50,487 bases of DNA. It comes from Reyranella sp. Lineage in GTDB: Bacteria > Pseudomonadota > Alphaproteobacteria > Reyranellales > Reyranellaceae. The stretch is from the NCBI GenBank assembly GCA_051985755.1, contig JBPYDO010000380.1, positions 1 to 50,487 on the forward strand, read 5' to 3'. Below, one piece after another: positions 11,105 through 44,490 of the stretch; the stretch's first letter is position 1, and every line of letters begins with the position of its first letter. The notes beneath the pieces are model-generated. The model worked only from the letters and a program-made list of their open reading frames with translations, ran no database searches and was not told the origin of the DNA. The position numbers were made by a program, and so were the translations under genes.

Positions 11105-12487
11105 ATGTTTAGCTTTCTCGATCGAAAACGAACCATCGCCAAGCCGGGCTTCAGCCGGTGGATGGTGCCGCCGGCCGCGTTGTGCGTGCATCTATGCATC
11201 GGCCAGGCCTACGCGTTTAGCGTGTTCAACCTGCCGATGACCAAGCTGATCGGCATCAGCAAATCCACGCCGGACGACTGGAAGCTCACCGAGCTCGGTT
11301 GGATCTTCTCGATTGCCATTTTCATGCTCGGCGTCTCGGCGGCGGTGTTCGGCCGCTGGGTCGAGGAAGGCGGTCCGCGCCGGGCCATGTTCACCGCCGC
11401 CCTGTGCTGGGGTGGGGGCTTCCTGATTGGGGCCTTCGGCGTCTCGATCCATAATCTGTGGGTCGTCTATTTCGGCTACGGGTTCCTCGGCGGTTGTGGC
11501 CTCGGCATCGGCTACATCTCGCCGGTCTCGACGCTGATCAAATGGTTCCCCGACCGGCCGGGCATGGCAACCGGCATGGCCATCATGGGCTTCGGCGGCG
11601 GCGCTTTCATCGCCTCGCCACTGTCAGTGTGGCTGATGCAGAAATTCTCTACGTCGACGCATATCGGCGTCGCCGAGACGTTCGTCATCCTCGGTATCGT
11701 CTATTTCTTCTTCATGATCGTCGGCTCGATTATCGTGCGCGTCCCGGCCGAGGGCTGGAAGCCCGCCGGCTGGGTCGAGCCCGCGAAGCCGAAGAAGCTG
11801 ATCACGACGAAGAACGTGTTCGTCTACGACGCGCTGAAGACCCCACAGTTCTGGTTTATCTGGTGGGTGCTGTGCCTGAACGTCACGGCCGGCATCGGCG
11901 TGCTCGGCCAGGCCTCGGCTATGAGCCAGGAGATGTTCCCTGGCCACGTCTCGGCCGTGGCCGCTGCGGGCTTCGTCGGCATGATGAGCCTGTTCAACAT
12001 GGGCGGCCGGTTCTTCTGGGCCTCCACGTCGGACTACCTCGGCCGCAAGAACACCTACTTCGTGTTCTTCGCCCTGGGCACGGTCCTCTATGCGCTCGTG
12101 CCGCAGACCGGCGAGATGGGCAGCGTGCCGCTGTTCGTGCTGTGCTTCCTAATCATCATCAGCATGTACGGCGGCGGGTTCTCGACCGTGCCGGCGTATC
12201 TGCGCGATATGTTCGGCACGCGCTACGTCGGCGCCATCCACGGACTGCTGCTGACCGCCTGGTCGATGGCCGGCATCTTCGGCCCGGTGCTGGTGAACTA
12301 CATCCGCGAGTACAACGTCGCGCACGGCGTGGCCAAGGCTCAAGCCTACAACACCACCATGTACGTGATGGCGGTCCTGCTGGTGATCGGCTTCATCAGC
12401 AACGCCATGGTGCGGGCGGTGCACGACCGCCACCACATGAAGGCGGACGACCCGCGGGGCGACTTCGTCGCCGCAGCGCGCAGCTAG
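11105..12487 (+). CDS. OFA-family MFS transporter (oxalate/formate antiporter-like)
   Basis: CIGQAYAFSVF, GIGYISPVSTLIKWFPDRPGMATG and SMYGGGFSTVPAYL; about 12 hydrophobic segments. ATG 11105 follows GGGAGA. Confidence 0.88.
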   Translation: MFSFLDRKRTIAKPGFSRWMVPPAALCVHLCIGQAYAFSVFNLPMTKLIGISKSTPDDWKLTELGWIFSIAIFMLGVSAAVFGRWVEEGGPRRAMFTAALCWGGGFLIGAFGVSIHNLWVVYFGYGFLGGCGLGIGYISPVSTLIKWFPDRPGMATGMAIMGFGGGAFIASPLSVWLMQKFSTSTHIGVAETFVILGIVYFFFMIVGSIIVRVPAEGWKPAGWVEPAKPKKLITTKNVFVYDALKTPQFWFIWWVLCLNVTAGIGVLGQASAMSQEMFPGHVSAVAAAGFVGMMSLFNMGGRFFWASTSDYLGRKNTYFVFFALGTVLYALVPQTGEMGSVPLFVLCFLIIISMYGGGFSTVPAYLRDMFGTRYVGAIHGLLLTAWSMAGIFGPVLVNYIREYNVAHGVAKAQAYNTTMYVMAVLLVIGFISNAMVRAVHDRHHMKADDPRGDFVAAARS

Positions 12488-12496
12488 GGAGGCAAC

Positions 12497-12625
12497 ATGA
12501 GCGACGCAAACGACACCACGCCTACACCCGCCTGGAAGCTGGCCGCCGCCTGGGGCTTCGTCGGCATCCCACTCGCCTGGGGCGTGATCCAGACGTTGAT
12601 CAACGCACTGAAGCTTTTCCAGTAG
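12497..12625 (+). CDS. 42-aa membrane peptide, MFS transporter small subunit type (not in the ORF track)
   Basis: GGGAGG RBS followed by MSDANDTTPTPAWKLAAAWGFVGIPLAWGVIQTLINALKLFQ*. The WxxVGIPLAWG motif is typical of small partners of OFA transporters. Confidence 0.8.
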   Translation: MSDANDTTPTPAWKLAAAWGFVGIPLAWGVIQTLINALKLFQ

Positions 12626-12643
12626 CCAACGAAATCATTGCAG

Positions 12644-12675
12644 AAACCCCGGCGGTCAACCCGCCGGGGTTTTTG
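12644..12675 (+). terminator. Rho-independent terminator, possibly bidirectional
   Basis: AAACCCCGGCGG-TCAAC-CCGCCGGGGTTT followed by further Ts, between convergent operons. Confidence 0.85.
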
Positions 12676-12688
12676 CTTGGCACGACGG

Positions 12689-13402
12689 CTAGCCCGCAGG
12701 CAGGGGATCGAGCGGCGCTGCCAGTTGCCATCGGCCGCGCGCGGCGATCGCGACGTGCAGGCCGGCGGCCGGCGCAAGGGAAGCTAGCGACCAGCTGCCG
12801 GTATCCTTGTCGCCGGCGCATTGCAGCAGCTCGGCCGGTTCTCCGGGAGCGAGTGAAACGGCGAATGAGCCGAGCGGCACGGACAACCCGAGGCCCAGTG
12901 CCTTGAGGTACGCTTCCTTGCGCGTCCAGCAATTGAAGAAGCCTTCCTCGCGCAGCGCTGCCGGAAGCGCTGCCAGCGCCGCCACTTCGCGCGGCGCGAA
13001 GAATTGCTCGGCGAGTTTGGCGGTGGCCAGCATGGGGATGCGCCATTCGATGTCGCAGCCGATGGCGAGGCCGCGATCGATGACATAGAGCGCCAGTCCC
13101 GCGGAGTGGGAAAGACTGAACTCGATATCGGTGCCATCGACGCGTGGCTTGCCGAAACGATTGCAGGCGAGCCGCACTTGCCGCGGCAGGTTGCCGAGCT
13201 CCTCGGCCAGCAACTCGCGCAGGCGGCCGCGACGCACGATGTAGCGATCGCGGTCGCGCTGGAAATGAAATCGTCTGGCGCGCCGCTGCTCTGAGTCGGA
13301 AAGGACGCTGGCATAGCGGGCCACGGCATCCGCTTCGATATCGAGCGCCTGCCAGTGCGCGCGTACGCGGATGGTCTCGGTCGTGGCGGTCGACGGCGGC
13401 AC
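12689..13402 (-). CDS. 4'-phosphopantetheinyl transferase, Sfp type
   Basis: FGKP, FSLSHS, IGCDIE and FFNCWTRKEAYLKALGLGL. Confidence 0.92.
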   Translation of the reverse strand: MPPSTATTETIRVRAHWQALDIEADAVARYASVLSDSEQRRARRFHFQRDRDRYIVRRGRLRELLAEELGNLPRQVRLACNRFGKPRVDGTDIEFSLSHSAGLALYVIDRGLAIGCDIEWRIPMLATAKLAEQFFAPREVAALAALPAALREEGFFNCWTRKEAYLKALGLGLSVPLGSFAVSLAPGEPAELLQCAGDKDTGSWSLASLAPAAGLHVAIAARGRWQLAAPLDPLPAG

Positions 13403-13417
13403 GGGCCCCTGCCAGTC

Positions 13418-16400
13418 TCAATGCGCCTGGAGAGGCGAGTAGGGGACAGTCGATTCGCGGTGGGTTCTATCCTCCCTTCTCGGCCGCCCGGTCCCGCTGC
13501 CGTCGGCGGCGGCCAGGCATCGGCTAAGCGCCGATGCGAGCGTGCGGACGAACGGTTCTTCCATGATCGTGTCGTGCTCGCCGGCGATGGCGACCACGTC
13601 GAGCGACGGCGCGGCGCGACGCCAGATCGGCACGGGATCGCAGACGTCATAGCGCGGGCCGGTGACGCGGAAGAGGCTCAACTTGGCGTCGTACCTCCCG
13701 GGCCGAAAGGCCACGAAGGCGCGGACACCGATCTGGAACATCTGCCGGGATCGCTCGGAAGTCGCCCAGACGGTGCCGGCCAGCCGCCGGGCAGGATCGC
13801 CAAGTCCCAGGCGCGTGCGCAGCCTGTTGGCGACCTGCGCGAGCTTGGCCGACAGGTAAGCCGGCAACTGGCTCCGCTTCAGGGTCGCGAACTTGCGCAG
13901 CACGCGCGCCAGCAACATCGCCTGGTAGCCAAGCCAGTGCGGCAGCGGCAGGTAGCGCTCGTGAAGGTCGGTCTCGAGCAGGGCCAGCAGTTCGACCTCG
14001 GCGCCCGCCTGGCGGAGCCGGCGGCCCATGTCGAAGGCGATGAGACCGCCGAACGAATAGCCCGCGAGCGCGTAGGGACCAACCGGCTGCAGCTCGCGAA
14101 TCGCCGCGAGGTAGGCCTCGGCCATGTCGGCGATGCTGCCGTGCGGCTCCTGCTGCGGATCGGCGCCGCGGGCTTGGATGGCGTAGACCGGCCGCGTCGT
14201 GCGCATCTGCTCGGCGAGCGGCCTGAGCTGCAGGACATTGCCGAAAACGCCGTGAACGATGAAGAGCGGCCGGCCGATGCCCGGCCGCAGCTCGACCAGG
14301 TAGGAGAAGCGCTCCTCGGCGGCCGAGCGCAGCGCGTCGCCAAGGCCGGCGATCGTGCGCGTCCTGAAGAGGATGCTGAGCGGCAATTCGCGACCCCAGC
14401 GCGCTTTGATCTCGCAAGTCATCTTGAAGGCGAGCAGCGAATGGCCGCCGAGATCGAAGAAGTCGTCGTGCATGCCGACTTTCTCGAGTCCCAGCAGCTC
14501 CTGCCAGATGGCGGCCAACCCGCGCTCGATGTCGTCGCGCGGTTCCTGCCCTTCCACAGAAGGGGCGGGCATCGACGGAGCGGGCTGCAGCGTGGGCAGG
14601 CGCTTGCGGTCGATCTTGCCGTTGGGCGTCACCGGCAGCTGCGGCAGCACGACGATGCGCCCCGGCACCATGTAGCCCGGCAGGCGCTCGCGCAGGAAAG
14701 CGCGCATGTCCGTCAGGTCGCTCTCGCCCAGCTCTGATCCCGCAGGGCCAGCCACATAGGCGACCAGGCTCGCCTCGCCCGAGGCGTCGGCCACGGCGCG
14801 GGCGGCGGCGGCGGCGATCTTCGGATGCAAGGCGATCGCGCCTTCCACTTCTTCCAACCCGACGCGAAAGCCGCGCACCTTGACCTGGTTGTCCATGCGG
14901 CCGAGGAACTCGATCTCGCCGTCGTTCCGGTAACGCACGCGGTCGCCCGTCTGGTACAGCCGTTCTCCCGGCACGAAGGGATCGGCCACGAATTTGCCTG
15001 CCGTCAGTGCCGCGTCGTTGCGGTAGCCGCGGGCGAGGCCCGCCCCGCCGATACAGAGCTCTCCCGCGACACCATCGGGGACCAGGGCACCGCCGCCGTC
15101 CAAAACGTAGGCACGGGTATTGGCCAGCGGCCGGCCGATCGGGACCGGCTCCTCGCCGGCGCTCACTTCGTGGCGCAGCGACCACACCGTCGTTTCGGTG
15201 GGACCGTACATGTTCCAGACGCTGCGGCCCCGGTCGAGCAGTGCGCCCGCCAGGTCGGACGAGAGTGCCTCGCCGCCGCACAGGATCTTGAGCTGGCGAT
15301 CGCCGCGCCAGCCTGCCGCGATCAAGGCCCGCCAGGTGGCGGGCGTTGCCTGCGCCACGGTGCAGCCCGACCGCGCCAGGAGCCGCGCGAGGCGCGACGG
15401 ATCGGCCGCTTCCTCGCGCGTCGCCAGCACCAACCGGCCGCCCGCGATCAGCGGCAAGAAGAGCTCCAGCGCGGCGATGTCGAAGGAGAGGGTGGTGAGC
15501 GCCAGAAAACTGTCGTCCGACGAGAATCCCAGGTCGCGCTGCATCGCCGTCAGGAGGTTCACTAGCGAGCGGTGCGTGATCTCGACCGCCTTCGGCTTTG
15601 CCGTCGAGCCGGAGGTGTAGAGAAGATAGGCGAGGTCGTCGGGGCTGGCGGTTCGCGAGGCCTTCGGCGGATTGGGGCGCGGCGGAACCTGGTCGCGGCC
15701 GCAATCGTCGGCGTCGTAGAGGACGACGCGGGCCTCCGAGCGGGGCAGTCGCCAGGCGACCGACCGCTCGGTAAGCAGCGCGGCGGGTTGGGCGTCCTCG
15801 AGCAAGAAGCTAAGCCGCGCCGCCGGCAGGGCCGGATCGAGCGGCAGGTACGTGGCACCGGCGCGCATGACGGCGAGCAGGCCTGTAACCATTTCAATCG
15901 ACCGCTCCATCGCAATCGCCACCAGCGTTCCCGGCGCCACACCGGCCCGGGTGAGCCGCCGCGCCAGGCGCTGGACGCGCCGCTCCAGCCTGTCGTAGCG
16001 CCAGCTGCGCCCATTGCATTCGACAGCGATCGCCTGCGGTGTCTGCCGCGCCTGCTCCCGGCATCGTGCCTGGATCAGCGAATCGAGAGTCGCTTGCGGG
16101 AAATCCCGCTCAGTGGCGTTGCGCTCTACCAGGAGCCGCTGCCGCTCCTCGGACGACAGCAAGGGCAGGCGGCCCAGCGTGCATTGCGGGTTCGCGACTG
16201 CGCTGGCCAGCAGCGTTCGCCAGTGGCCGATCATGCGCCGGATGGTGGCGGCCTCGAACAGGTCGGTGCTGTAGAGGAACCGCCCGAGGATCAGGTCCTG
16301 CTGCTCCTCGAGCTCGAAATACAGGTCGAACTTGGCGGTGCCGACCGTCACGTCCATCTGCGTCAGCAGCCAGCCCTCGCCGCACGCCATGGGTGGCGGC

Positions 16401-17581
16401 TGGATCGAGAACAGGACCTGGAACAGCGGATGGCGGTTGTCGCGCCGTGGGCGGACTTCGCGTACCACCCGGTCGAGCGGCACGTCGCTGGCGTCGAGCG
16501 CCTCCACCACAGTCGTCTGGACCTCGGCGAGGTAGTCGCAGAACCGCTTGCCGCCTTCGGGCTGGCTGCGCAGCGCCACGCCGTTCAGGAAATAGCCCAT
16601 CAGGGTCTCGAGCTCGGGCCGGCGGCGCATGTCGGTGACCCCGCCGATGACGAAGTCGGTCTGGCCGCTATAGCGGTGCAGCATCGCCTTGAAGGCGGCG
16701 AGCAGCGTCGTGTAGAGCGTCACGCCCTGCTGCCGGCTGAGCGATCTCAGGGCCGCGGTGAGCTCACGCGACAAGGCGAAAGTCTCCATCGACCCACGAT
16801 GCGATGCGGGGCCCGTGACCGGCCGGTCGGTGGGCAGAGCAAGTTCCGGCGGATCACCCGCGAGTTTCTGCCGCCAATAGGCCAGTTCGCGTGCCATCGA
16901 CCGGGAGGCGAGGCGGCGCTGCTGCCAAGCGGTATAGTCGCCGTACTGCAGGCGGGGCTCGGCGAGCGTGGGCGTCTCGCCGCGCGCATAGGCGGCGTAG
17001 AGCGCGCTGAGTTCGGGCATCATCACCCGCACCAGCGACACGCCGTCGAAGATCAGGTGATGCAGCGCCACGTAAAGCCGATGCCGGTCGCTGGCGAGCC
17101 GCACCAGCAGCGTGCGCAACAGCGGGCCTTCCTCGAGGTCGAAGGGCCGCCGGGCCTGCCGCGTGGCAATGCGCAAGGCCTCCTTCTCGCGCTCCTCCTC
17201 GGCTAGATGGGTGAGGTCGACCAGGCGCAGCCGCAGGCGAAGCTCGGGATGCACTACCGCCCGCGGCTGGCCGTCGGCGAGGTCGAACGACGTGCGCCAG
17301 ACCTCGTGCCTTCTCAGGATCTCGTTGAAGGCGCGCTCGAATGCTGCGAGATCGAACGGGCCGGTCCGATGGATGGTGATCGCCTCGTTGTAGAGGGGCA
17401 CGTCGGGCGCCATCGAGGCATGGAGCCAGATGTCGTTTTGCTCGGCCGAGAGCGGCACCGTCGCGGACCGCTTTCGCGGTTCAACGGCCTCGCCGGGGGC
17501 TCGATGGAGCGCACCCTCGCCGTGCAGCAGGTCCTCGAGCAACCGCCGCCTTTGCTCGTCGAGGGTCGGTTCGACGGTCAT
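13418..17581 (-). CDS. NRPS termination module C-A-T-TE (A-domain code suggests Gly)
   Basis: C: HHLIFDG. A: YTSGST, YGPTETT, TGD, GRMDNQVKVRGFRV, NGKIDR. T: FFDLGGHSL. TE: GYSFGG. ATG 17581 overlaps the P450 stop. Pocket residues read by eye: DILQLGMVWK. Confidence 0.93.
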   Translation of the reverse strand: MTVEPTLDEQRRRLLEDLLHGEGALHRAPGEAVEPRKRSATVPLSAEQNDIWLHASMAPDVPLYNEAITIHRTGPFDLAAFERAFNEILRRHEVWRTSFDLADGQPRAVVHPELRLRLRLVDLTHLAEEEREKEALRIATRQARRPFDLEEGPLLRTLLVRLASDRHRLYVALHHLIFDGVSLVRVMMPELSALYAAYARGETPTLAEPRLQYGDYTAWQQRRLASRSMARELAYWRQKLAGDPPELALPTDRPVTGPASHRGSMETFALSRELTAALRSLSRQQGVTLYTTLLAAFKAMLHRYSGQTDFVIGGVTDMRRRPELETLMGYFLNGVALRSQPEGGKRFCDYLAEVQTTVVEALDASDVPLDRVVREVRPRRDNRHPLFQVLFSIQPPPMACGEGWLLTQMDVTVGTAKFDLYFELEEQQDLILGRFLYSTDLFEAATIRRMIGHWRTLLASAVANPQCTLGRLPLLSSEERQRLLVERNATERDFPQATLDSLIQARCREQARQTPQAIAVECNGRSWRYDRLERRVQRLARRLTRAGVAPGTLVAIAMERSIEMVTGLLAVMRAGATYLPLDPALPAARLSFLLEDAQPAALLTERSVAWRLPRSEARVVLYDADDCGRDQVPPRPNPPKASRTASPDDLAYLLYTSGSTAKPKAVEITHRSLVNLLTAMQRDLGFSSDDSFLALTTLSFDIAALELFLPLIAGGRLVLATREEAADPSRLARLLARSGCTVAQATPATWRALIAAGWRGDRQLKILCGGEALSSDLAGALLDRGRSVWNMYGPTETTVWSLRHEVSAGEEPVPIGRPLANTRAYVLDGGGALVPDGVAGELCIGGAGLARGYRNDAALTAGKFVADPFVPGERLYQTGDRVRYRNDGEIEFLGRMDNQVKVRGFRVGLEEVEGAIALHPKIAAAAARAVADASGEASLVAYVAGPAGSELGESDLTDMRAFLRERLPGYMVPGRIVVLPQLPVTPNGKIDRKRLPTLQPAPSMPAPSVEGQEPRDDIERGLAAIWQELLGLEKVGMHDDFFDLGGHSLLAFKMTCEIKARWGRELPLSILFRTRTIAGLGDALRSAAEERFSYLVELRPGIGRPLFIVHGVFGNVLQLRPLAEQMRTTRPVYAIQARGADPQQEPHGSIADMAEAYLAAIRELQPVGPYALAGYSFGGLIAFDMGRRLRQAGAEVELLALLETDLHERYLPLPHWLGYQAMLLARVLRKFATLKRSQLPAYLSAKLAQVANRLRTRLGLGDPARRLAGTVWATSERSRQMFQIGVRAFVAFRPGRYDAKLSLFRVTGPRYDVCDPVPIWRRAAPSLDVVAIAGEHDTIMEEPFVRTLASALSRCLAAADGSGTGRPRREDRTHRESTVPYSPLQAH

Positions 17582-18840
17582 GGCTGCCCCGCCGCTTGGA
17601 AGGTCACCGGCAGCGCCTCGAGGCCGCGCAGTCCTAGATTCTGCCGCCAGACCAGGGGCCCGGGCTCGAGCGCGAGCCCGCCGAGCCGGCGCAGCAGCGT
17701 GGGAAAGGCGACCTGCGCCTCGATGCGGGCAAGCGGCGCGCCGAAGCAGAAGTGCGCCGCCCAACCGAAGGCGAGGTGACGGTTGTTCTGCCGCTCGAGG
17801 TCGAGCCGATCGGGGTCGGCGAAGCGTGCGGGATCGCGGTTGGCCGCCGCCATGACGGCCATGACGGCGTCGCGTTTCTTGATGCGTTTGCTGCCCAGCA
17901 CGAGGTTGTCGGGCGCCAGTCGCGCCGTGTGCTGGCTCGGGCTTTCATAGCGCAGCAGCTCCTCGACCGCCGATTCGGTGATCGCGGGGTCGTCGCGCAG
18001 CTGCGCCAGCGCCGCCGGATTTCGCATCAGGGTGAGCAGGCCGCTGGCGATCAGGTTGGTCGTCGTTTCCTGGCCGCCCACCATGGTGACGATGACGTTG
18101 GCGATCACTTCCTCCTCGCTGAGCCGCGAGCCCTCCTCGCAGGCGTCAAGAAGGAGGCGGATGAGACCCGGCCGTCGCGTGCCCTGCTGCTCGCGCACGG
18201 CGGATCGGAAATAGGCGACCATCTCGCCGAGGCTCTGCAACACGCGGCTGACGCGGTCGGGATTGTGCTGGAAGTTGCCCAGCATCTCCGCGAAGTCGGC
18301 GGACCAAGCCTTGAGTTGCCGGTGGTCGCTCGCCGGCACGCCGAGCAATCCGGCGGTGACGATAGCCGGCAACGGGTTCGCGAAATCGTCAATCACATCC
18401 ATCCGGCCGCTCGCCGCGACCTGGTCGATCAGGCCGTCGGCGATGTCCTGGATCTGCGGGCGCAGCTGCTCGACGCGCCGCGACGTGAAGGCGCTGGAGC
18501 AGAGCCCGCGCATCCTGGTGTGGGCCGGCGCGTCCAGGAACAGCATCTGCCGCACCATCACCTGCGCCACCGGTTCCAGCGCGCCGAGCCCCATGGCGCC
18601 GAGCTGCTCGGGCGTAGGCGTGCGCTGGGCGGAAAACTTGTGCAGCACATCGAGCACGCCCGAGTAGCTGGTGACGACCCAGGCGTGCAGGAACGGGTCC
18701 CAGGCGACCGGGTCGCGCGCGCGCAAGCGATGGTAGAGCGGGTAAGGGTCGGCAAGCACGCTGGGATCGAGCAGCTGGTAGAGGCTCGGCTGTTCGCCCC
18801 GTCGGGTGGCCGACGGAACTGCGGAAGCCCCGGACGTCAC
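17578..18840 (-). CDS. Cytochrome P450 (BioI/CYP107-like)
   Basis: I-helix GGQETT, EELLR (ExxR), ANRDPARF and heme ligand FGWAAHFCFG. Confidence 0.95.
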   Translation of the reverse strand: MTSGASAVPSATRRGEQPSLYQLLDPSVLADPYPLYHRLRARDPVAWDPFLHAWVVTSYSGVLDVLHKFSAQRTPTPEQLGAMGLGALEPVAQVMVRQMLFLDAPAHTRMRGLCSSAFTSRRVEQLRPQIQDIADGLIDQVAASGRMDVIDDFANPLPAIVTAGLLGVPASDHRQLKAWSADFAEMLGNFQHNPDRVSRVLQSLGEMVAYFRSAVREQQGTRRPGLIRLLLDACEEGSRLSEEEVIANVIVTMVGGQETTTNLIASGLLTLMRNPAALAQLRDDPAITESAVEELLRYESPSQHTARLAPDNLVLGSKRIKKRDAVMAVMAAANRDPARFADPDRLDLERQNNRHLAFGWAAHFCFGAPLARIEAQVAFPTLLRRLGGLALEPGPLVWRQNLGLRGLEALPVTFQAAGQP

Positions 18841-18841
18841 C

Positions 18842-20752
18842 TCACTCTCCCGAATCGGCGGTCATCCGCTGCCTGACATCGTCCTCGCTCATCGATGCCA
18901 CGAGGGCGCGGACCTCCTGCTCGACGCGCCGGGCGAGATTCGCCGCCGTCTGGGCTTCGAAGAGGTCGCGCAGGCCAAGTGCGACGCCGAACGCCTCGCG
19001 CATGCGCAGCACGAGCTGAGTGCCGAGCAGCGAATGGCCGCCCAGCAAGAAGAAGTTGTCGTCGACGCCGACATGCTCGACCTTCAGAAGATGCTCGATG
19101 ATCGACACGATCCGCTGTTCGGCGTCGGTCGCGGGCGCGCGATAGAGGCTCGCCGGTAGGATGTTCGCGGGGGCGGGCGGCGGCAGGGCCGAACGGTCGA
19201 CCTTGCCGTTGGCAGTCAAGGGCAAAGACGCCACGCGAACGAAGGTGGCGGGCAGCATGTAGGTGGGCAATTGCTGGCCGAGAAAGTCGTGCAGCTCGGC
19301 GGCGCGCGGCGCCTGGCGTTCGGCCGGCACGACATAGGCGATCAGCCGCTTTCCGCGGCCGTCATCGCGCGCAACGATGGCGCTTTGGGCGACGCTCGGA
19401 TGGCGATCCAGCACCGCCGATATCTCGTCCGGCTCGATGCGATGGCCGCGCAGCTTCAGCTGGTTGTCGCAACGGCCGTGGAAGGCGATTTCGCCGTCCA
19501 TCGTCCAAGCGCCGAGGTCGCCGGTGCGGAACAGGCGCTCGGCCAGCGTCGCCGGCTGGGCGCTGCCCGGCAGGAATTTCTCCGCGGTGAGCGGCGGCCG
19601 GTTGCGGTAGCCGCGGCCAACGTTCTCGCCGCTGATATAGATCTCGCCGATCTCGCCCGGGACAGTCGGCTCACCGTCCTCGTCGAGGATGTGGACCGCC
19701 GTGCCGGAGATCGGCCGTCCGATGGTCGGCAGGCCCGCCGCCAGCGGCTCGGGCTGGACCACCCCCGAAGTCGTCACGACCGTGCACTCGGTGGGACCGT
19801 AGTTGTTGACGACGGCGAAGGGCAGGCCGGGCTTGGGGCGCAGGTGCAGCGTGTCGCCGCCGGTCAGCAGGGTGCGCAAGGCTACGCCTTTCGGCCAGTC
19901 GCCGGTGATAAGCGCCTCGGCGAGCGGCGTCGGGACGAACGCGATGGTGATCGCCTCTTCCAGCAGCCACTGCTGCAGATGGCTTGTCGAGGTGCGCACC
20001 GAGTCTGGCGGCAGGTGGAGCGTTGCACCCGCCGCCAGGTACGGCAGCAGCTCCCAGACGACAGCATCGAAACTCAGTCCGGCCAGGCAGCTCGCTTGAT
20101 CGCGCGGCCCCACGCCGAAGGCTTGGCAATGCCAGGAGACGAGATTGAGAAGATTGTTGTGCGTGATCTCCACGCCCTTGGGCTCGCCGGTCGAGCCGGA
20201 GGTGTAGATGATGTAGGCAAGGTCCTCGCCCTCGACGCTGCTCGAACGAAGCGGATTGCCGCGGCGGCGCGCCTCCTTGCGGCCATCGAGCACCGTGCGG
20301 CCGCTCGCCGCGAGCCTTGCCGTCATCGCACCGGCCGCCACCACGGCCACCGCGCCGGCATCGTCCAATACGAAGCGAATCCTCTCCTCCGGCCAGGCGG
20401 GATCGATCGGCAGGAAAGCCGCTCCGGCGCGCAGCGCGGCGAGCACGGCGACGATCTGCTCGAACGAGCGCTCCAGGCAGATGCCGACGACCGTGTTCGC
20501 GTCGGCGCCGGCGGCCTGCAGGTCGGCGGCAAGCGCCTCCGACGCCTGCAACAGCTTGCCGTAGGTCATGCGCCGGGTGCCGGACTTGATTGCGACCGAG
20601 TTCGGCGCGGTCTGTCCGGAGTCGACAATCAACTCGGTGACCAGCCGGCGTGTGCCGCGCATCGGGCTGCTCGATCTGGCGGCAGCATGTAGGAAACTGT
20701 GAGGGATCAACTCAGCCGCCGCTTCTTCCAGCAGCCGATGGATAAGACTCAT
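18842..20752 (-). CDS. Stand-alone NRPS adenylation-thiolation (A-T) didomain (code suggests Leu)
   Basis: YTSGSTGEPKG, FDAVVWE, NNYGPTE, FRTGD and NGKVDR; PCP motif FFLLGGHSL. ATG 20752 is coupled to the upstream stop (a start at 20662 is also possible). Pocket read by eye: DAWFLGNVVK. Confidence 0.92.
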   Translation of the reverse strand: MSLIHRLLEEAAAELIPHSFLHAAARSSSPMRGTRRLVTELIVDSGQTAPNSVAIKSGTRRMTYGKLLQASEALAADLQAAGADANTVVGICLERSFEQIVAVLAALRAGAAFLPIDPAWPEERIRFVLDDAGAVAVVAAGAMTARLAASGRTVLDGRKEARRRGNPLRSSSVEGEDLAYIIYTSGSTGEPKGVEITHNNLLNLVSWHCQAFGVGPRDQASCLAGLSFDAVVWELLPYLAAGATLHLPPDSVRTSTSHLQQWLLEEAITIAFVPTPLAEALITGDWPKGVALRTLLTGGDTLHLRPKPGLPFAVVNNYGPTECTVVTTSGVVQPEPLAAGLPTIGRPISGTAVHILDEDGEPTVPGEIGEIYISGENVGRGYRNRPPLTAEKFLPGSAQPATLAERLFRTGDLGAWTMDGEIAFHGRCDNQLKLRGHRIEPDEISAVLDRHPSVAQSAIVARDDGRGKRLIAYVVPAERQAPRAAELHDFLGQQLPTYMLPATFVRVASLPLTANGKVDRSALPPPAPANILPASLYRAPATDAEQRIVSIIEHLLKVEHVGVDDNFFLLGGHSLLGTQLVLRMREAFGVALGLRDLFEAQTAANLARRVEQEVRALVASMSEDDVRQRMTADSGE

Positions 20753-22086
20753 GGCTCGCCTCCCGAAGGTGTTGAGGCTTCGCTGGCGCGGACGCGATGC
20801 GCAGACAACGTGTCCACGCTCGCGAACGTGCTGCGACAAAAGTTCGTCTGTGCAACTACGGAATTTCGCCTCTCGGTGGTGGTCGACGTTCTTGCGCGGG
20901 CATACGCAAGGTGCCGGGCGAGCCGACGCGCGGTGAACTTCGCTCCATAGGCAAACCGCGCTACCGGCCCGAAGTTCAGCGCCGAGATCGGCCCGACGAA
21001 GTGCAGACCCGGCACTGTGCTTTCGAATTGCGATGACAGCAGCGGCGTCCTCTCGAACAGAGAGAGCCTCGCCATCAGCACGGGATCGAGGAAGCCGAGC
21101 CGCCGTGCGTCCGGCCGATAGCCCGTTGCTGCAACGATGTGGTCGGTATTGACGATTGTGTTGCCGCCGTCCGGCGTCGCCAGGCACAACTGGATCCGGC
21201 TGCCCGCACACTCGGCCCGCAGCAGCCGATGGCCCGATAACAACGGGAAGCGGCCGATGACTCGCTCGGCCATGTACCAGCCGCCGGCGGGACCGAGGTG
21301 ATTGCTTACGATCCTGAGTCGCCGCGCGTCCGACAGATGGCGAAAGGCGAGCGGCGCATGGACGTAGGCCCATGAGCGCCAGGATGGGCCGATCCCGGTC
21401 ATCGGTTCGCGCAGCCGGTCGGTGAGGGGGCGCGGCAGGCGCATGCGGGTATGGATTTCTAGGCGCGGACTGCGGGTCACCAGGCGGACGACCGCGCCCT
21501 GCTCGTGCAGCAGCGCGGCAATGTCGATTGCCGAGGCGCCGCCGCCCAGCACGGTCACGTCCTTGTTCCGAAAGGCGGCGAGGTCGTGGTGCGCCGAGCT
21601 GTGCGAGACGAGATCCGACGGCAAGTGACCGAGCTCATCCGGCAAATGGGCGAAGGCGCCGATCCCGACAGCGACGACGACACGACGGGCCTGCAGGGCC
21701 TCGCCGTCGTCGAGCTCGAGGCTGAAGCCTGCGCTGGCCGGCCGCACGGCGATGACCGACTTTTGCTCCAGGTGCGGCACCAACCGGCGCTGGAATGCGA
21801 GCCCATACTGGCAGAAGGTCTTGAGCGAAACCGGCACGCCGAGGGCGCTGTAGGGCAGGTCGTTCTCAGCGCAGTAGCGGCTGAGCGTGAACTGACCCTT
21901 GTGGTCGTACAGGCAGGAGGCGAAGGGCTCCGACTTCAGCAACATGTCCTTGGGCATGTGCTGGCGCCAGAATTGCAAGGGCACGCCGAAGATCCGGTGC
22001 TCGACGCCACGGCCGGCAAGTTGCGCCGCAATCGACAGGCCGTAGGGACCCGCTCCCACTATTGCGACATCGGTCACCGCTGACAT
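20749..22086 (-). CDS. FAD/NAD(P)-dependent oxidoreductase (flavin monooxygenase/pyridine nucleotide-disulfide fold)
   Basis: VGAGPYG (FAD), LGGGASA (NAD(P)H), ATGY and PGLHFVG; no redox CxxC seen. Confidence 0.85.
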   Translation of the reverse strand: MSAVTDVAIVGAGPYGLSIAAQLAGRGVEHRIFGVPLQFWRQHMPKDMLLKSEPFASCLYDHKGQFTLSRYCAENDLPYSALGVPVSLKTFCQYGLAFQRRLVPHLEQKSVIAVRPASAGFSLELDDGEALQARRVVVAVGIGAFAHLPDELGHLPSDLVSHSSAHHDLAAFRNKDVTVLGGGASAIDIAALLHEQGAVVRLVTRSPRLEIHTRMRLPRPLTDRLREPMTGIGPSWRSWAYVHAPLAFRHLSDARRLRIVSNHLGPAGGWYMAERVIGRFPLLSGHRLLRAECAGSRIQLCLATPDGGNTIVNTDHIVAATGYRPDARRLGFLDPVLMARLSLFERTPLLSSQFESTVPGLHFVGPISALNFGPVARFAYGAKFTARRLARHLAYARARTSTTTERRNSVVAQTNFCRSTFASVDTLSAHRVRASEASTPSGGEP

Positions 22087-22129
22087 CTTGGTTTCCTCCT
22101 GTTCCGTCCTGACAACAAAATCTGCGGGC

Positions 22130-23491
22130 TCACCTCATCGGTTTAGCGGCATCGCCGAGAACGCCGGCCGGCGGCGTCGCCGGGATGATCGCTTGCGCCG
22201 GGATGATCGTAGGTCGCCGTCGCAGGCGCCGCCGGGCCTCGGTCATCCGCCGACGCATGACGTCGAGCCAGGCCGGCGGCTCCATGGCCACCGGTGTTCG
22301 GTAGGCGAGAACGAATTCGGGCGATTGCCAGGGCACGTCGTGATGCGCCGAGGTGAGCCAGGCGCTCGCCGGGTCGCGCCAGCTCTCCTGCGGGAACAAC
22401 GCCACGATGCGCGAGCCGACGGTCGGCAGCACGCGCCGGCGACAGGGGGCGTCGCCGAATGCCTCTGCGAGAGCGCCGATCATGTCCGACCGGCTGTCGA
22501 TCGCGATGTGGCAGATCTGCGTGGGACGCGCGTTCATCTCGATCAGGAACGGCCGGCCGCCGGCGGCCTCCAGGACGAAGTCGAACCCGACGAGGCCGCA
22601 CAGGCCCAGTCGCCGGACCATGCGCAGGGTGGCGATGCTCATGCCGGGCGAGTCGATCAGGCGCACCACTGTGGCGGGGCTGGTGGCGTCGGCGGTCTCG
22701 AGCACCTCGACGCTCAATCCGGCAAGGACTTCACCCCGCCAGCAGGCGACGGCGCGGTTGGCCGGCCGTCCTTCGACGTACTGCTGCAGGCAGATTGCGG
22801 GCGGTCGCCGCCACAGGCGATCGAGGAAGGCAAGGTCCAGCTTCTTGACCGTCTGCTTGACACCTGACAGCGGGCCGGCAGCGGCGCGCAACTCCGCGAA
22901 GGCGCGCACCGCCTCCTCGACGTCGTGGACGATGCGCACGCCCTGTCCGCCAAAGCTACGGTCGCGCTTCAGGACCAGCGGGAAGGTCGCCTTTGCGGCG
23001 CGCTGCCGTAGCTCGGCCGCGCTGCCGACGATCGACGTCGCGGGCACGGTCAGGCCCTCCGATCGGGCCAGCGACACGAACCGGCTCTTCTCGTAGCCGA
23101 ACACGAATGACCACGCCGCGCCGAGCGACCTCTCGATCAGTTCGGCCATGCCGTGCGGGTCGCGACCGGCGCCATGCATGGCGCGGGCGTAGAGCCGGCG
23201 CATGAGATCGATCGCGAGCTCGTCTCCCGGAATGATGAGGCTGGGCCCGAGGCGGACGACAGAACGAGCGATGCTCGCTATCGCCTCGCCTCGGGTGCGC
23301 CCGAGGGGGCTGGAGGAAAGCCCGCTCAGCCGATGGGCGGCATGATCTTCGGGCGCAACCACATGAACGCAAAAGCCGCCTTCGGCCAGCGCCAGGCAGA
23401 GCCGCGTCGTTGAGGGCCAGTGGATCGTCGTGACGACGACCACAAATGGCCGGACGCTATCGCTCTCCTCGGCGTCTAACGGCGGTTGCAT
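22130..23491 (-). CDS. ATP-grasp domain protein (putative amide/carboxylate-amine ligase)
   Basis: EKSRF, FPLVLKRDRSFGGQGVRIV, LQQYVEG, GFDF and FLIEMNAR. The start is uncertain (ATG 23491 chosen); the 704-aa ORF upstream of this looks non-coding or relic. Confidence 0.82.
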   Translation of the reverse strand: MQPPLDAEESDSVRPFVVVVTTIHWPSTTRLCLALAEGGFCVHVVAPEDHAAHRLSGLSSSPLGRTRGEAIASIARSVVRLGPSLIIPGDELAIDLMRRLYARAMHGAGRDPHGMAELIERSLGAAWSFVFGYEKSRFVSLARSEGLTVPATSIVGSAAELRQRAAKATFPLVLKRDRSFGGQGVRIVHDVEEAVRAFAELRAAAGPLSGVKQTVKKLDLAFLDRLWRRPPAICLQQYVEGRPANRAVACWRGEVLAGLSVEVLETADATSPATVVRLIDSPGMSIATLRMVRRLGLCGLVGFDFVLEAAGGRPFLIEMNARPTQICHIAIDSRSDMIGALAEAFGDAPCRRRVLPTVGSRIVALFPQESWRDPASAWLTSAHHDVPWQSPEFVLAYRTPVAMEPPAWLDVMRRRMTEARRRLRRRPTIIPAQAIIPATPPAGVLGDAAKPMR

Positions 23492-23733
23492 CAGTCTCGC
23501 GCGCCTCCCGTACTCTGGGTTGTTCAGGTGGAACGCAGCAACACTCGACACTCGACCAACGCACCCTCGCCCATCGTTAAATTTGGCTGATCTGCTGCGC
23601 AGCAGCTTGTGACCAGAGTGGAGCGCCTTGTGACCAAACGGGGCTGCTTGTTTGGAATTTCGTGGCTCACTCGGTGCTGCGGCGAGGGGGCGCCGGCCGC
23701 TGCAGTGCAGCGTAAGGTGAGCGTCGCGTGGTT

Positions 23734-23769
23734 TCCTCGCCGCCGGTTTCTTGCGACCGGCGGCGAGGA
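23734..23769. terminator. 14-bp perfect GC hairpin, probably the terminator of the former degP-like gene
   Basis: TCCTCGCCGCCGGT-TTCTTGCG-ACCGGCGGCGAGGA, downstream (minus strand) of the DegP relic. Confidence 0.55.
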
Positions 23770-23912
23770 GGGGGTGGGTTGACGGGAGGCTCAGTCCAGC
23801 AACCCGTTGCCGCGATCCGGAGGACCGGAAAGGCAGGCAAAGGGGACAACGCGCGGACAAGAAGGGCGCCGCGGTGACCAAATTGTGCGACGTCACCTTT
23901 GTGTGAGGCCGA

Positions 23913-24190
23913 CTACGCCGCTTTTTCGGAGAGACGGCGACGAAGCGCGTCATGCCGCGCGCGTCCACTACGGCCGGCGTCACCTTGATGGCGAGGTCGG
24001 AAAAGTCGTGCATAGGTTCGCTGGCAACCGCGGATTGTACCACTGTCGACGGGACGAGCACGGCGGAGGCGGCAAGCGCCGTCGTCGCTGCCAGCTCGCC
24101 CAGAAGCCGGCTTGTCGGTGCGGCCGCAACATTGAAAATTTGTATAGCTCGCGCGCCGACTCGCAGAGCAATGATCTGGATGGATAAACG
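23913..24190 (-). pseudogene. Internally deleted Do/DegP-family serine protease relic
   Basis: Signal-like ATTALAASAVLVP...AVA plus DFSDLAIKVTPAVV (Do-family N-terminus), joined directly to DARGMTRFVAV (resembles the PDZ2 C-terminus). Protease and PDZ cores are absent. Confidence 0.55.
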
Positions 24191-24308
24191 CGCGGCATGC
24201 ACGCCCACCAGGGCGCGGCCATCAAAACATCCAAACCTCGGCAAGGAGTTGCCAACATCGTCTCCTACCTCGGCATGGGTTTCGGGGAGTCTTTCGATGG
24301 AGGATACG

Positions 24309-24638
24309 ATGATCCCTCGTCTGGCCTTCCTGACAGTCGCGATGATCGGCGTCGCAGGGCTTGCTTATGCCCAGGGGACCACGACAACGCCGGCGCCAAC
24401 GCCGGCACAGACGCAGCAAAAGACCGTGCAGCAGGCCAAGTCGACCGCGACTCCGGCCCCTACGAAGAAGAACAATACGCATCGAATGCAGGCTCAGACG
24501 TGCGGCATGCACCAGACCGTGGCGATGACGGACGAGTATGGCTTCAAGTACGACAGCCGCGGCGACAGGCTCAACGCTGCGGGATGCGTGATCCCACCGC
24601 CGCATTCGCGGCCGGGCGCGAAGGTCATTCAGAATTGA
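24309..24638 (+). CDS. Small secreted hypothetical protein (109 aa, two Cys)
   Basis: GGAGGA RBS; signal peptide ending AYA-Q; Thr/Pro/Gln-rich linker; C-terminal C...DEYGFKYDSRGDRLNAAGC. Confidence 0.7.
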   Translation: MIPRLAFLTVAMIGVAGLAYAQGTTTTPAPTPAQTQQKTVQQAKSTATPAPTKKNNTHRMQAQTCGMHQTVAMTDEYGFKYDSRGDRLNAAGCVIPPPHSRPGAKVIQN

Positions 24639-24642
24639 CCGG

Positions 24643-25038
24643 ATGACCGACCGACGCTTTGTGCTTTGGATGGCGCTTGCCGGCATCGCGGCTTTTTCTG
24701 CCGCGCCGGCATTCGCCTTCCAGAGCGGCACCTTCGACGCCAAGAGCTTCGCCGCGGCGCAGGCTGCCGGCAAACCGATCCTGATCGAGGTTACCGCTCC
24801 GTGGTGTCCGATCTGCAAGGCGCAGAAGAAAATCCTTTCGCGCCTTGCGCGTGATCCCAAGTTCGCGACCCTGGTCGATCTCCACATAGACTTCGACAGC
24901 CAGAAGGACCTGCTGCGCCGCTTCGGCGTATCGATGCAAAGCACGCTGATCTCCTTCAAGGGTGCGAAGGAAGTAGGCCGCTCGACCGGCGATACCGACG
25001 CTTCGTCGATCGAGGCGCAACTCGAGAAGTCGCTCTAG
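24643..25038 (+). CDS. Exported thioredoxin-family protein
   Basis: Signal peptide (RR...AFA) and APWCPIC active site. Confidence 0.9.
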   Translation: MTDRRFVLWMALAGIAAFSAAPAFAFQSGTFDAKSFAAAQAAGKPILIEVTAPWCPICKAQKKILSRLARDPKFATLVDLHIDFDSQKDLLRRFGVSMQSTLISFKGAKEVGRSTGDTDASSIEAQLEKSL

Positions 25039-27872: not shown

Positions 27873-28820
27873 CTAGTCGCCAACATCCGCGATCATGCGC
27901 TCAAGCAGCTTCGCATCGGGATAGACGCCGAGCCCGGCCCGGACGTTGTCGCGCATGTGCTCGGGATTGCTGGTGCCCGGGATGACGCAGGTCACGGCGG
28001 GGTTGGCCAGCACGAACTTCAGTAGGATCTGCGGCCAGCTGGTGCAGTCGATGTCGGCCGCCCAGCCCGGCAGCTTGCGCCGGCGCAGCCGGTGCAGGAG
28101 GTCGCCGCCGCCGAACGGCAGGTTGATCACGACGGCGATGCCATTGTCGCGCGCGAACGGCAGCAAGGTCTCCGCGGCGCCGCGATCGACGATCGAATAG
28201 TCGACCTGCACGAAGTCGAACCCGCCGAGCCGCAGCACCGATTCGAGCGCGCTGTGCGCGCCTGCCGTGTAGTGGGTGACGCCGATCAGCCGGATGCGGC
28301 TGTCCTTCTTCCAGGCCTTCAGGGTCGGCAGATGCGTCCCCCAGTCGAGCATGTTGTGGATCTGCATCAGGTCGATGACGTCGGTACGCAGCCGCTCGAA
28401 CGAGCGACGCATCTGGGCGATGCCGGCCTCGCGGCCGCTGGTCCAGACCTTGGTGGCGAGGAAGGCCTTGTCGCGGCTGCCGGCAGTGGCCAGCAGATCG
28501 CCGACCACGCCCTCGGCGCGACCGTACATGGGCGAGCTGTCGATCACCGAGCCGCCCGCCTCGAACAACACCTTCAGCACCTCGGCCAAAGGCGCCCGCT
28601 CGGCGGGGCTCGAGCCGACATCGAAGGTTCGCCACGTGCCGCAGCCGATCACGGGCAGCATTTCACCGGTCGCGGGTATCTTGCGGGTCTGCATGCGCTC
28701 TCCTGGCTGGGCCGCGGTCTGCTGGCCGGTTTGCGCCATGGCTCGAGGACAGCCGGTTGCGGCGAGCATTGCCGTGCCGGCCAACTGAAGGAAGGACGAA
28801 CGCGTCAGCCTGTGTCTCAC
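27873..28820 (-). CDS. Aldo/keto reductase with an N-terminal signal-like extension
   Basis: IGCGTW, IDSSPMYGRAE, FLATKVW, IDLMQIHN and VIPGTSNPEHM. GTG start overlaps the upstream stop. Confidence 0.9.
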   Translation of the reverse strand: MRHRLTRSSFLQLAGTAMLAATGCPRAMAQTGQQTAAQPGERMQTRKIPATGEMLPVIGCGTWRTFDVGSSPAERAPLAEVLKVLFEAGGSVIDSSPMYGRAEGVVGDLLATAGSRDKAFLATKVWTSGREAGIAQMRRSFERLRTDVIDLMQIHNMLDWGTHLPTLKAWKKDSRIRLIGVTHYTAGAHSALESVLRLGGFDFVQVDYSIVDRGAAETLLPFARDNGIAVVINLPFGGGDLLHRLRRRKLPGWAADIDCTSWPQILLKFVLANPAVTCVIPGTSNPEHMRDNVRAGLGVYPDAKLLERMIADVGD

Positions 28821-31800: not shown

Positions 31801-32032
31801 AGAGGTCGGCGATCTCCTGCGCCGCCGTTGGGAAGCGCAGCAGCACCGAGCGATGGACAGCGTCGACCGTGGTGCCGCCGGGGATCGACTTGTCCCAGTG
31901 GCGGCCGTCGATGGTCGCAGTCTCGCCCTTGGCTATTTCAAACGTCTCGTGGCCTTGCGCCAGAGCGCGACTCGGGGCGGCGAGCGCGGCTCCAGCCAGG
32001 AGGAGGCGGCGTCTGTCGATTTGGAACGACAT
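28817..32032 (-). CDS. Large Tat-exported hypothetical protein (1071 aa)
   Basis: Signal DRRRLLL...ALA-Q; long ORF with normal, aromatic-rich composition; no family recognised with confidence. Confidence 0.8.
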   Translation of the reverse strand: MSFQIDRRRLLLAGAALAAPSRALAQGHETFEIAKGETATIDGRHWDKSIPGGTTVDAVHRSVLLRFPTAAQEIADLLRFGRVLVHADLSLTYNGYEIVPEGYTCRDGLGRKMWTDDPPTWHVEAIPLRHPWKADPDSGPTFNASVNGRRYWTRYGAADVAHDRYSTELPPQELSTREHEARFDITHLLASPALEREAGARLRWLEQGGFLLRKLETYDSRYRQLGDAYEWAMPTGGHGLRFTVPRLLVACRRTNGIVSINLPLGLRADLELQTADGSRPTAVLVPQTELVQRARRAMTPRGVARRDWELKRLAELRKVGGDSVSSWAEVEGDKGYKDYEARLSGLLQMPPRYWMGWEIEDLLLVWYLFRDLMPGPVQDHLKNYWTAWLQPDLPTDAFVHPQSPDAIDYWKRNHDWRGRASFFRDGYNYQVSTQNFNHTAAMGALLGGALIGSQYAMADGRHGLEHLPLRFWGFLDGTTQEILDHYYLSITLSGQKMFADFAPTAVDRLMGRVLVDRTLEMLITLYHSRLRRFVSSSGRARLSGVMVEQDGIYGALHSLSKEGVVKYPDLKFDGRVQGMAAWGYDFPPGRVAMQALAEPWGPSWVADLIDDKPVPFEETSAETTRGFFKPPLWRRSWLGRWHGLASTDIRGGTFDVLAQWVRAPQKSTRLEDLGSLTVRYAANDPDLVTTGGGISAQAGITLTFQSRGRAIIFTKPHANRQRFLEALGKQGLAKLATVIGLWNFNENRDWEIYADDRKLDSFPQRLAAGTRFLIRDGITYLAILPLPTADLGRDAEIEIGPGGGGKADPTGAEVAPALIVSMYNMKRAEPLKPDAIDFDKLALSTYGGFVLEMGDVEQYGSFEAFRNRIKANTLTASWSEDHHQMKVAYKSGDDLMEAGFGTEFGQPTAHFSIDPGSQEKAIPWRRLNGEWPYLPAGLERDTSWAQQGTTGRLEKNGAVLTTEAGRKAYLICDPRSGGVLAYNPLPDPQSFALTTRDGATFKADGKVGLLRLEYRPWSHEIDIRHALKPDQHVEDFARTFTVDGLKGPLRVVVNAKPIEAKRDGDGFKVVL

Positions 32033-44474: not shown

Positions 44475-44490
44475 TGGCACGGTTCTTGCT
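44475..44490 (+). promoter_or_regulatory. Sigma54 (-24/-12) promoter upstream of rpoN
   Basis: TGGCACGGTTCTTGCT matches the TGGCACG-N4-TTGCW consensus exactly. Confidence 0.85.

Follow-up and report, generated by a model that had tools for sequence, protein, structure and literature searches.

What would a bacterium with a single nonribosomal peptide synthetase (NRPS) system use it for? This question is raised by contig JBPYDO010000380.1 of Reyranella sp. (assembly GCA_051985755.1), positions 1 to 50,487 of which are the stretch analysed here (the window). It carries a six-gene operon encoding, in gene order, an ATP-grasp protein, a flavoprotein (the flavoenzyme), a free-standing adenylation-thiolation (A-T) protein, a cytochrome P450, a condensation-adenylation-thiolation-thioesterase (C-A-T-TE) protein and a phosphopantetheinyl transferase (PPTase). 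By tblastn searches, the operon holds the only NRPS and the only PPTase of its type in the host genome assembly (G000), which is 89% complete. Every enzyme type in it is known, and the operon is real, intact and uncharacterised. It consists of two widespread modules, an A-T/P450 cassette and an ATP-grasp/flavoenzyme pair, which are joined here and adjacent in few genomes, rather than of one conserved unit. Our preferred reading, held tentatively, is that the operon is a detached glycan-tailoring unit in which the two modules are coupled and which acts in trans on a surface polysaccharide.

The first-pass annotation of this DNA had described six co-oriented genes with overlaps or very short gaps, specificity codes for Leu and Gly, a closing terminator, and no regulator, transporter or resistance gene inside. 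The genes, overlaps, codes and terminator are all real and intact. All six genes lie on the minus strand at the coordinates of Table 1, separated by 43, -4, 1, -4 and 15 nt from the ATP-grasp gene to the PPTase gene, and a purine-rich, ribosome-binding-like stretch stands upstream of every one of the six starts. A Pfam search of the six proteins returned the domains assigned before and no regulator, transporter or resistance gene. Reading frames and catalytic motifs are intact throughout, and rough dN/dS ratios against the closest relative are 0.16-0.42 (five genes, the ATP-grasp gene being left out). Near-identical pieces of the operon are present in soil sequencing runs from four studies; positions 20710-20980 recur without difference in a contig from a different study's run, which thus spans the flavoenzyme/A-T junction and speaks against an assembly chimera. 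These observations also bear on the possibility that the operon is a non-functional or decaying piece of a horizontally acquired exopolysaccharide (EPS) locus. The cassette is patchily distributed, being found in 4/113 other genomes of the genus, 1/400 genomes of the class and 0/300 other genomes from the order of the Caulobacteraceae genome G062 (4-5 candidates were scored per genome in the class- and order-wide searches), and in the genus member G124 (locus L258, 851-2655) the A-T is split into two frames, with the PPTase divergent upstream. The patchiness and the split gene would suit a remnant, but the six intact frames and motifs, the dN/dS ratios and the recurrence of the sequence in runs of four studies make this explanation highly improbable.

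Specificity codes were read at positions chosen by motif, following the ten-residue scheme. The A-T protein (Pfam AMP-binding, AMP-binding_C and PP-binding) has intact motifs of a free-standing A-T, including the carrier serine motif at residues 571-575, and its code, DAWFLGNVVK, is a published Leu code according to the available part of PMC7524897. The C-A-T-TE protein (Pfam Condensation, AMP-binding, PP-binding and Thioesterase) reads DILQLGMVWK, identical to a published Gly code save at 1/10 positions (PMC12283262, available part), and both amino acid assignments made beforehand gain comparative support. Its motifs are HHLIFDG at residue 174, the carrier motif at 1045, GYSFGG at 1174 and the His motif at 1334; the thioesterase is of the serine type, with Asp and His motifs present, and release as a beta-lactone was dropped as a candidate because of this serine. 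The PPTase matches Pfam ACPS and AASDHPPT_N, and reaches 144 bits with the NCBIfam HetI model, under the cut-off of 370. The same C-A-T-TE architecture is found in AB3403 of Acinetobacter baumannii (PDB 4ZXH; E 8e-170). AB3403 is, however, not the best match to the operon protein, and there is no sign of orthology between them. Its neighbour genes differ from the A-T/P450/ATP-grasp set of the operon.

In the P450 (Pfam p450), the acid-alcohol pair of the I-helix, the ExxR motif and the haem cysteine (residues 255, 293 and 358) are all intact; within the family, the haem motif FGWAAHFCFG is present in 77/81 sequences and the I-helix motif MVGGQETTT in 73/81. The nearest solved structure is BioI (E 3e-76), and the 59 solved-structure matches at E<=1e-50 include none under the name NikQ or OxyD. 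Because the protein is nearest to BioI rather than to the listed NikQ/OxyD-type enzymes, beta-hydroxylation is proposed by analogy. NovH/NovI is another free-standing A-T plus P450 cassette. The NikP1/NikQ and PlyR cassettes (PMC3943440, available part) likewise have a stand-alone A-T beside a P450, with an invariant amino-acid code in the present case. In contrast to NikP1/NikQ-type cassettes, the one described here hands over to a minimal dipeptide module; relatives of it are found in polysaccharide loci and not in antibiotic clusters.

At least 524 relatives of the P450 were found in a scan of GTDB genomes, and the best 80 of them (64-80% identity; from Alphaproteobacteria, Acidobacteriota, Rokubacteria/Methylomirabilota, Chloroflexota and Actinomycetota) were examined as loci. 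Among cultured strains, Caulobacter sp. 17J80-11 carries the cassette. A match to the A domain is present in 77/80 of these loci, the flavoenzyme in 2/80 and a close ATP-grasp relative in 0/80. The A-T protein encoded immediately upstream of the P450 could be read in 71 cases: the Leu code is exact in 65 and altered by one letter in three (68/71 Leu-type), while the other three, where an additional A-T has been inserted, have a Gly-type code. The earlier suggestion that the A-T/P450 pair oxidises a carrier-bound amino acid gains comparative support. Downstream modules vary in architecture and code, some relatives having cysteine-type thioesterases, extra C domains or GNAT-like proteins. No P450 orthologue was found on plasmids at E<=1e-100.

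The cassette recurs beside Wza, Wzc, Wzy, Wzx, priming transferases and an ABC-2 permease/ATPase pair. When export and priming genes of other loci served as markers, and 20-kb stretches of the same genomes as controls (n=19), polysaccharide markers were detected in 12/19 cassette loci and 0/19 controls; they are present in 34/53 cassette loci of at least 15 kb and in 40/80 overall. The marker label is scattered across the P450 tree (20 changes, at least 14 of them forced by starred branches).

Several further features were observed among the cassette loci. Stand-alone condensation-like proteins directly follow the P450 in L035, L040, L041, L043, L045-L048 and others; the HHxxxDG motif is missing in 24/31 stand-alone C matches, which are possibly P450-recruiting or interface domains. 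In a large Acidobacterial group (L039, L042, L044, L049, L050, L053 and related loci), an ABC-2 permease/ATPase pair is accompanied by a C-T-TE gene whose motif is of the cysteine type and which is transcribed in the direction away from the C-A-T, A-T(Leu) and P450 genes. Near several alphaproteobacterial cassettes lies a luciferase-like monooxygenase or AurF-like N-oxygenase gene (Table 1), which may be a flavoenzyme stand-in or a chance neighbour.

Of the other module, the ATP-grasp protein (Pfam CPSase_L_D2 and ATP-grasp_3; no NCBIfam family at E<=1e-12) was modelled with a predicted local distance difference test score (pLDDT) of 92, and the model matches PurK, biotin carboxylase and L-amino acid ligase folds at Z 20-24. 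The three-domain ATP-grasp fold with its ATP and metal residues (two Lys, Asp, ExN) is predicted to be present, and K135, K175, D304, E318, N320 and R322 are kept in 75-80 of 80 homologues. As PurK, CPS, PurT, GAR synthetase and L-amino acid ligase have Z values only a few units apart, at 9-18% identity, the modelled fold is that of a generic ligase without clear subfamily.

The flavoenzyme has two GxGxxG-type motifs (residues 11-16 and 181-186) and an ATGY motif (320-323), G181, T321 and G322 being invariant across 51 sequences. By sequence, its best solved matches in a profile search are ferredoxin-NADP reductases, Pfam Pyr_redox_3 scores above Lys_Orn_oxgnase (PF13434), which reaches 49.4 bits (cut-off 21.3) and covers residues 126-210 only. 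Its model (pLDDT 91.6) is matched by PvdA at Z 34.7 (root-mean-square deviation (rmsd) 2.8, 364 residues aligned), KtzI at Z 34.2 and DesB at Z 34.0, followed by YpdA at Z 30.2 (rmsd 2.6, 310 aligned) and thioredoxin/ferredoxin reductases at Z <=25.6. Judged by this model, the fold is N-hydroxylase-like, with the substrate-binding subdomain included, and a hydroxylating activity is predicted. With PvdA, KtzI, DesB and SidA the protein has in common the fold over about 365 residues (Z 30-35) and the two dinucleotide-binding motifs, but identity is only 11-19% and the YpdA/Bdr reductase comes as high as Z 30.2; moreover its partner is an ATP-grasp protein rather than an acyltransferase and a siderophore synthetase. 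A role as P450 reductase, considered because of the ferredoxin-NADP reductase matches, was rejected: the N-hydroxylase fold fits better and the protein mostly occurs without a P450.

The pair itself is recurrent. From 68 metagenome loci with the flavoenzyme, 43 had at least 1 kb upstream, and a divergent ATP-grasp gene lies within 2.5 kb in 39 of these 43. Genomes of the genus have the gene order of the window, the ATP-grasp gene first and the flavoenzyme gene second, and an FkbM methyltransferase comes next in 4/9 close loci (closest match in the host genome: 59%, contig C289, beside a glycosyltransferase). Four of five plasmid regions with the flavoenzyme have the ATP-grasp gene and glycosyltransferases nearby, the Streptomyces one being without, and two of these four have export/flippase genes too; in Granulicella tundricola MP5ACTX9 the pair lies inside an EPS locus. 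In an even draw of 400 genomes of the class, 3/4 of the flavoenzyme matches outside the genus belong to a pair beside Wzc and glycosyltransferases, and the fourth lies at a contig end. GT2/GT4 genes are present in 9/25 long flavoenzyme loci (at least 10 kb) and in 1/19 controls. An ATP-grasp gene of S. meliloti is named among EPS-related genes in the available part of PMC12542648; there was no S. meliloti record among the plasmid search matches. A separate flavoenzyme clade (support 99; L205-L208, L210, L211 and L215-L217) was also noticed, with MetY and MetA homologues downstream and mostly a small carrier-like protein and an AMP-forming ligase (a GNAT-like gene in four loci); it lies near polysaccharide genes, has no ATP-grasp gene, and may concern a sulfur amino acid or homoserine-linked substituent.

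An NRPS is present in only 2/25 of the long flavoenzyme loci. Since the pair mostly occurs without any NRPS, its two enzymes are not dedicated to tailoring the peptide of the operon. Likewise, as the flavoenzyme adjoins the P450 in only two of the 80 cassette loci, the six genes do not form a single conserved unit: what is conserved elsewhere is each module, and not the compact six-gene system that the first-pass annotation had envisaged. The modules nevertheless seem to co-occur more often than expected by chance. The P450 tree places the window together with L025, L026 and the loci L027, L029 and L033 of the same-genus genomes G151, G007 and G135, in a clade of six rows (support 99). The flavoenzyme is found in 5/6 genomes of this clade (the window counted) and in 0/6 other alphaproteobacterial rows (Fisher p 0.015, kinship ignored), against a background of 15/113 genomes in the genus, 5/400 in the class and 0/300 others in the order of G062 (the last two again from 4-5 scored candidates per genome). 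Within the genus, the pair is present in 3/4 cassette genomes compared with 9/113 overall.

The six-gene arrangement itself seems to have arisen twice. G062 has flavoenzyme, ATP-grasp, A-T, P450, C-A-T-TE and PPTase genes closing a Wzx/Wzc/Wza locus. Its flavoenzyme groups with Mesorhizobium and G061 proteins, apart from the clade of the window's genus (support 96; quick tree, junk row L104 ignored), and its ATP-grasp protein is only 25% identical to that of the window, which suggests that the layout was assembled two times and would point to a shared intermediate or a shared acceptor. In L104, the flavoenzyme and the cassette lie within a Wza/Wzc/priming-transferase locus, and in L154 and L173 the pair lies near an A-T-TE protein with a Gly-like code (Table 1) and Wzx or a priming transferase, no P450 being present.

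These patterns allow for a parallel decoration, in which one polysaccharide receives a separate substituent from each module. The NRPS product would then never be a substrate of the ATP-grasp protein, and the promoter would be shared only since both modules are needed simultaneously. The ATP-grasp gene in 39/43 flavoenzyme loci, set beside the rarity of NRPS genes in long ones, indicates that the pair has its own substrate, and the cysteine-type thioesterases, extra C domains and GNAT-like proteins of some cassette relatives could transfer the peptide directly. We consider this arrangement distinctly unlikely, as the co-occurrence in the window's clade, with flavoenzymes of different origin, is more easily explained by a shared intermediate, although a shared acceptor also fits.

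Under the preferred reading, that of a glycan-tailoring unit with coupled modules, the first steps may be drawn from known enzymology: the PPTase would prime both carriers and the A-T protein would load leucine as Leu-S-carrier. The P450 would then oxidise the carrier-bound Leu; beta-hydroxylation is the commonest precedent, and is about as probable as the other outcomes (another C-H oxidation or an N-oxidation) taken together. The C domain would condense the oxidised Leu with Gly, and the serine thioesterase would release or transfer the dipeptide. From neighbourhood and fold only, the flavoenzyme may N-oxidise an amine, and the ATP-grasp protein may phosphorylate a carboxylate, most simply the Gly C-terminus, and join this activated group to a sugar precursor through an amine or a hydroxylamine of the latter. 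The polysaccharide made by one of the host genome's Wzx/Wzy- or ABC-type loci would serve as acceptor; these loci lie on contigs C233 (with Wzx, Wzc, Wza, and priming and further glycosyltransferases), C391 and C34. A cell-surface polymer had been named beforehand as one possible acceptor, and the polysaccharide neighbourhoods of the relatives lend it comparative support. It is fairly unlikely that soil bacteria employ small NRPS systems with a P450, together with the ATP-grasp/N-hydroxylase pair, to hang N-hydroxylated, oxidised peptides (possibly metal-binding hydroxamates) on their exopolysaccharide, with the operon as the minimal trans-acting version of such systems.

Several observations weigh against the glycan-tailoring reading. 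No polysaccharide gene lies near the operon in the window, and the GNAT-like protein of some EPS-embedded loci has no match in the host genome. Export and priming markers are present in only 1/11 alphaproteobacterial cassette loci, which are the closest relatives of the window, and since the Acidobacterial genomes are kin and not independent, the marker ratios given above are overstated. On the side of the pair, 0/9 close genus loci have EPS export genes, the FkbM methyltransferase (4/9) being all that they show; markers are present in only 8/25 long flavoenzyme loci, two of these eight being scored by a marker that came from one of the loci themselves; a P450 relative is present in 0/25; and many Acidobacterial pairs lie among housekeeping genes. 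A whole-genome flavoenzyme search, performed in the genomes of 50 of the 80 P450 loci, gave a match in 15/50 and none in 35/50. With the pair mostly without the cassette and the cassette mostly without the flavoenzyme, neither needs the other in general.

The same observations leave room for a free small molecule, i.e. an oxidised Leu-Gly released in linear form or as a diketopiperazine, which the flavoenzyme and the ATP-grasp protein would next N-oxidise and extend, yielding, for instance, a signal or a small chelator of the hydroxamate type. The operon is self-contained, encoding a PPTase of its own and a serine thioesterase that is intact; 10/11 alphaproteobacterial cassettes are without polysaccharide markers; the best fold matches of the flavoenzyme are siderophore N-hydroxylases; and for polyoxypeptin, the available part of PMC3943440 proposes both PlyR as hydroxylase of carrier-bound leucine and an amino-acid N-hydroxylation by PlyE. 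However, no exporter, receptor or regulator is present in the operon, both modules recur independently inside EPS loci, and downstream codes vary widely among the relatives, a poor fit to one conserved diketopiperazine. A free metabolite is a strong rival, in our judgement somewhat less probable than glycan tailoring.

Membership in four known systems fails on their defining features. In the Dlt system, an adenylating enzyme and a carrier protein deliver an amino acid (D-alanine) to teichoic acids, a surface polymer. In the operon, by contrast, delivery would be preceded by the action of a P450, a condensation module and a thioesterase, the DltA models score 282 and 249 bits (cut-off 476), and there is no MBOAT or DltD-like gene. 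Mycosporine-like amino acid clusters combine an ATP-grasp and an NRPS-like enzyme with a sugar-phosphate cyclase and an O-methyltransferase; neither of the latter two is present in the operon or among its direct neighbours. As for cyclodipeptide-synthase-associated P450s (pulcherriminic acid type), TIGR04538 gives 187 bits against a cut-off of 500, and no cyclodipeptide synthase is among the six genes. For the type B flagellin peptidylamido-glycan of Clostridioides difficile (available parts of PMC5207245 and PMC5207246), an ATP-grasp protein is likewise needed, its mutant being without the peptidylamido sugar of the flagellin glycan (PMC5207246), and an amino-acid unit ending in Gly is placed on an amino sugar. 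That locus, however, has a FemAB-like acyltransferase and a cyclodeaminase, neither of which is among the six genes, and no NRPS, P450 or flavin monooxygenase is named for it in those parts; its target is the glycan of a protein, and the glycosyltransferases for that glycan are encoded next to it, whereas the window has no glycosyltransferases and the G062 and L104 loci have them. No description of the cassette, its product or NRPS-built EPS substituents was found in the open literature (MIBiG and subscription journals were outside the scope), and the available part of a survey (PMC13642348) does not mention the cluster.

Table 1. Coordinates of the operon genes, the adjoining terminator and selected genes of related loci (positions are those of the window, or of the named locus)
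Feature	Position	Strand	Description
ATP-grasp protein	22130..23491	-	453 aa; predicted carboxylate-amine ligase, uncharacterised family
Class B flavoprotein (flavoenzyme)	20749..22086	-	445 aa; N-hydroxylase-like fold (modelled)
Free-standing A-T protein	18842..20752	-	636 aa; Leu code
Cytochrome P450	17578..18840	-	420 aa; highly conserved uncharacterised family
C-A-T-TE termination module	13418..17581	-	1387 aa; Gly code; serine-type thioesterase
Sfp/HetI-type PPTase	12689..13402	-	237 aa
Hairpin terminator	12640..12676		shared with convergent formate dehydrogenase/MFS operon; 16-nt arms, 94% complementary
Luciferase-like/AurF-like neighbour gene	L027 6702-7922		
Luciferase-like/AurF-like neighbour gene	L030 16000-17052		
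Luciferase-like/AurF-like neighbour gene	L031 5863-6867		
Luciferase-like/AurF-like neighbour gene	L029 15400-16326		
A-T-TE protein	L154 467-3445		Gly-like code
A-T-TE protein	L173 2805-5831		Gly-like code

Concerning the flanking DNA, the hairpin that closes the operon is strong and real (folding z = -4.4 on the operon strand and -7.1 on the other; 0/200 shuffles equally stable), but the longer of its U-runs is turned towards the convergent formate dehydrogenase/MFS operon. It is therefore a terminator common to both operons rather than one proper to the NRPS operon, as first supposed. Terminator-like sites in the region are at chance level (6 found, 6.6 expected). Apart from one tRNA, no Rfam family was found in the window; no sigma-70 site was found within 12000-25000, and no sigma-54 site above chance upstream of the operon. 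Two possible regulator sites, both without Rfam match, were seen upstream of the operon: a 9-nt sequence repeated at 21-nt spacing (23607-23636) and a perfect 14-bp hairpin (23734-23769). Elsewhere in the window, an exact sigma-54 -24/-12 motif at 44475-44489 (plus strand), the sole zero-mismatch site, lies shortly 5' of the rpoN gene (44533) and suggests autoregulation, and an open reading frame of 1071 aa at 28817-32032 (minus strand), with a twin-arginine-like N-terminus, reads as a real exported protein, with no Pfam and no NCBIfam match.

The A-T(Leu)/P450 cassette ranks with the better-conserved NRPS units encountered in this work, and is common in soil Acidobacteriota. The operon is a good test case for its function, being the only NRPS found in its genome and combining, within about 11 kb, both modules and their own PPTase. 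Should the cassette tailor EPS, many clusters of soil genomes that are now counted towards peptide natural products would in fact act on the chemistry of the cell surface, and the decoration of glycans would be added to the roles of NRPS modules.

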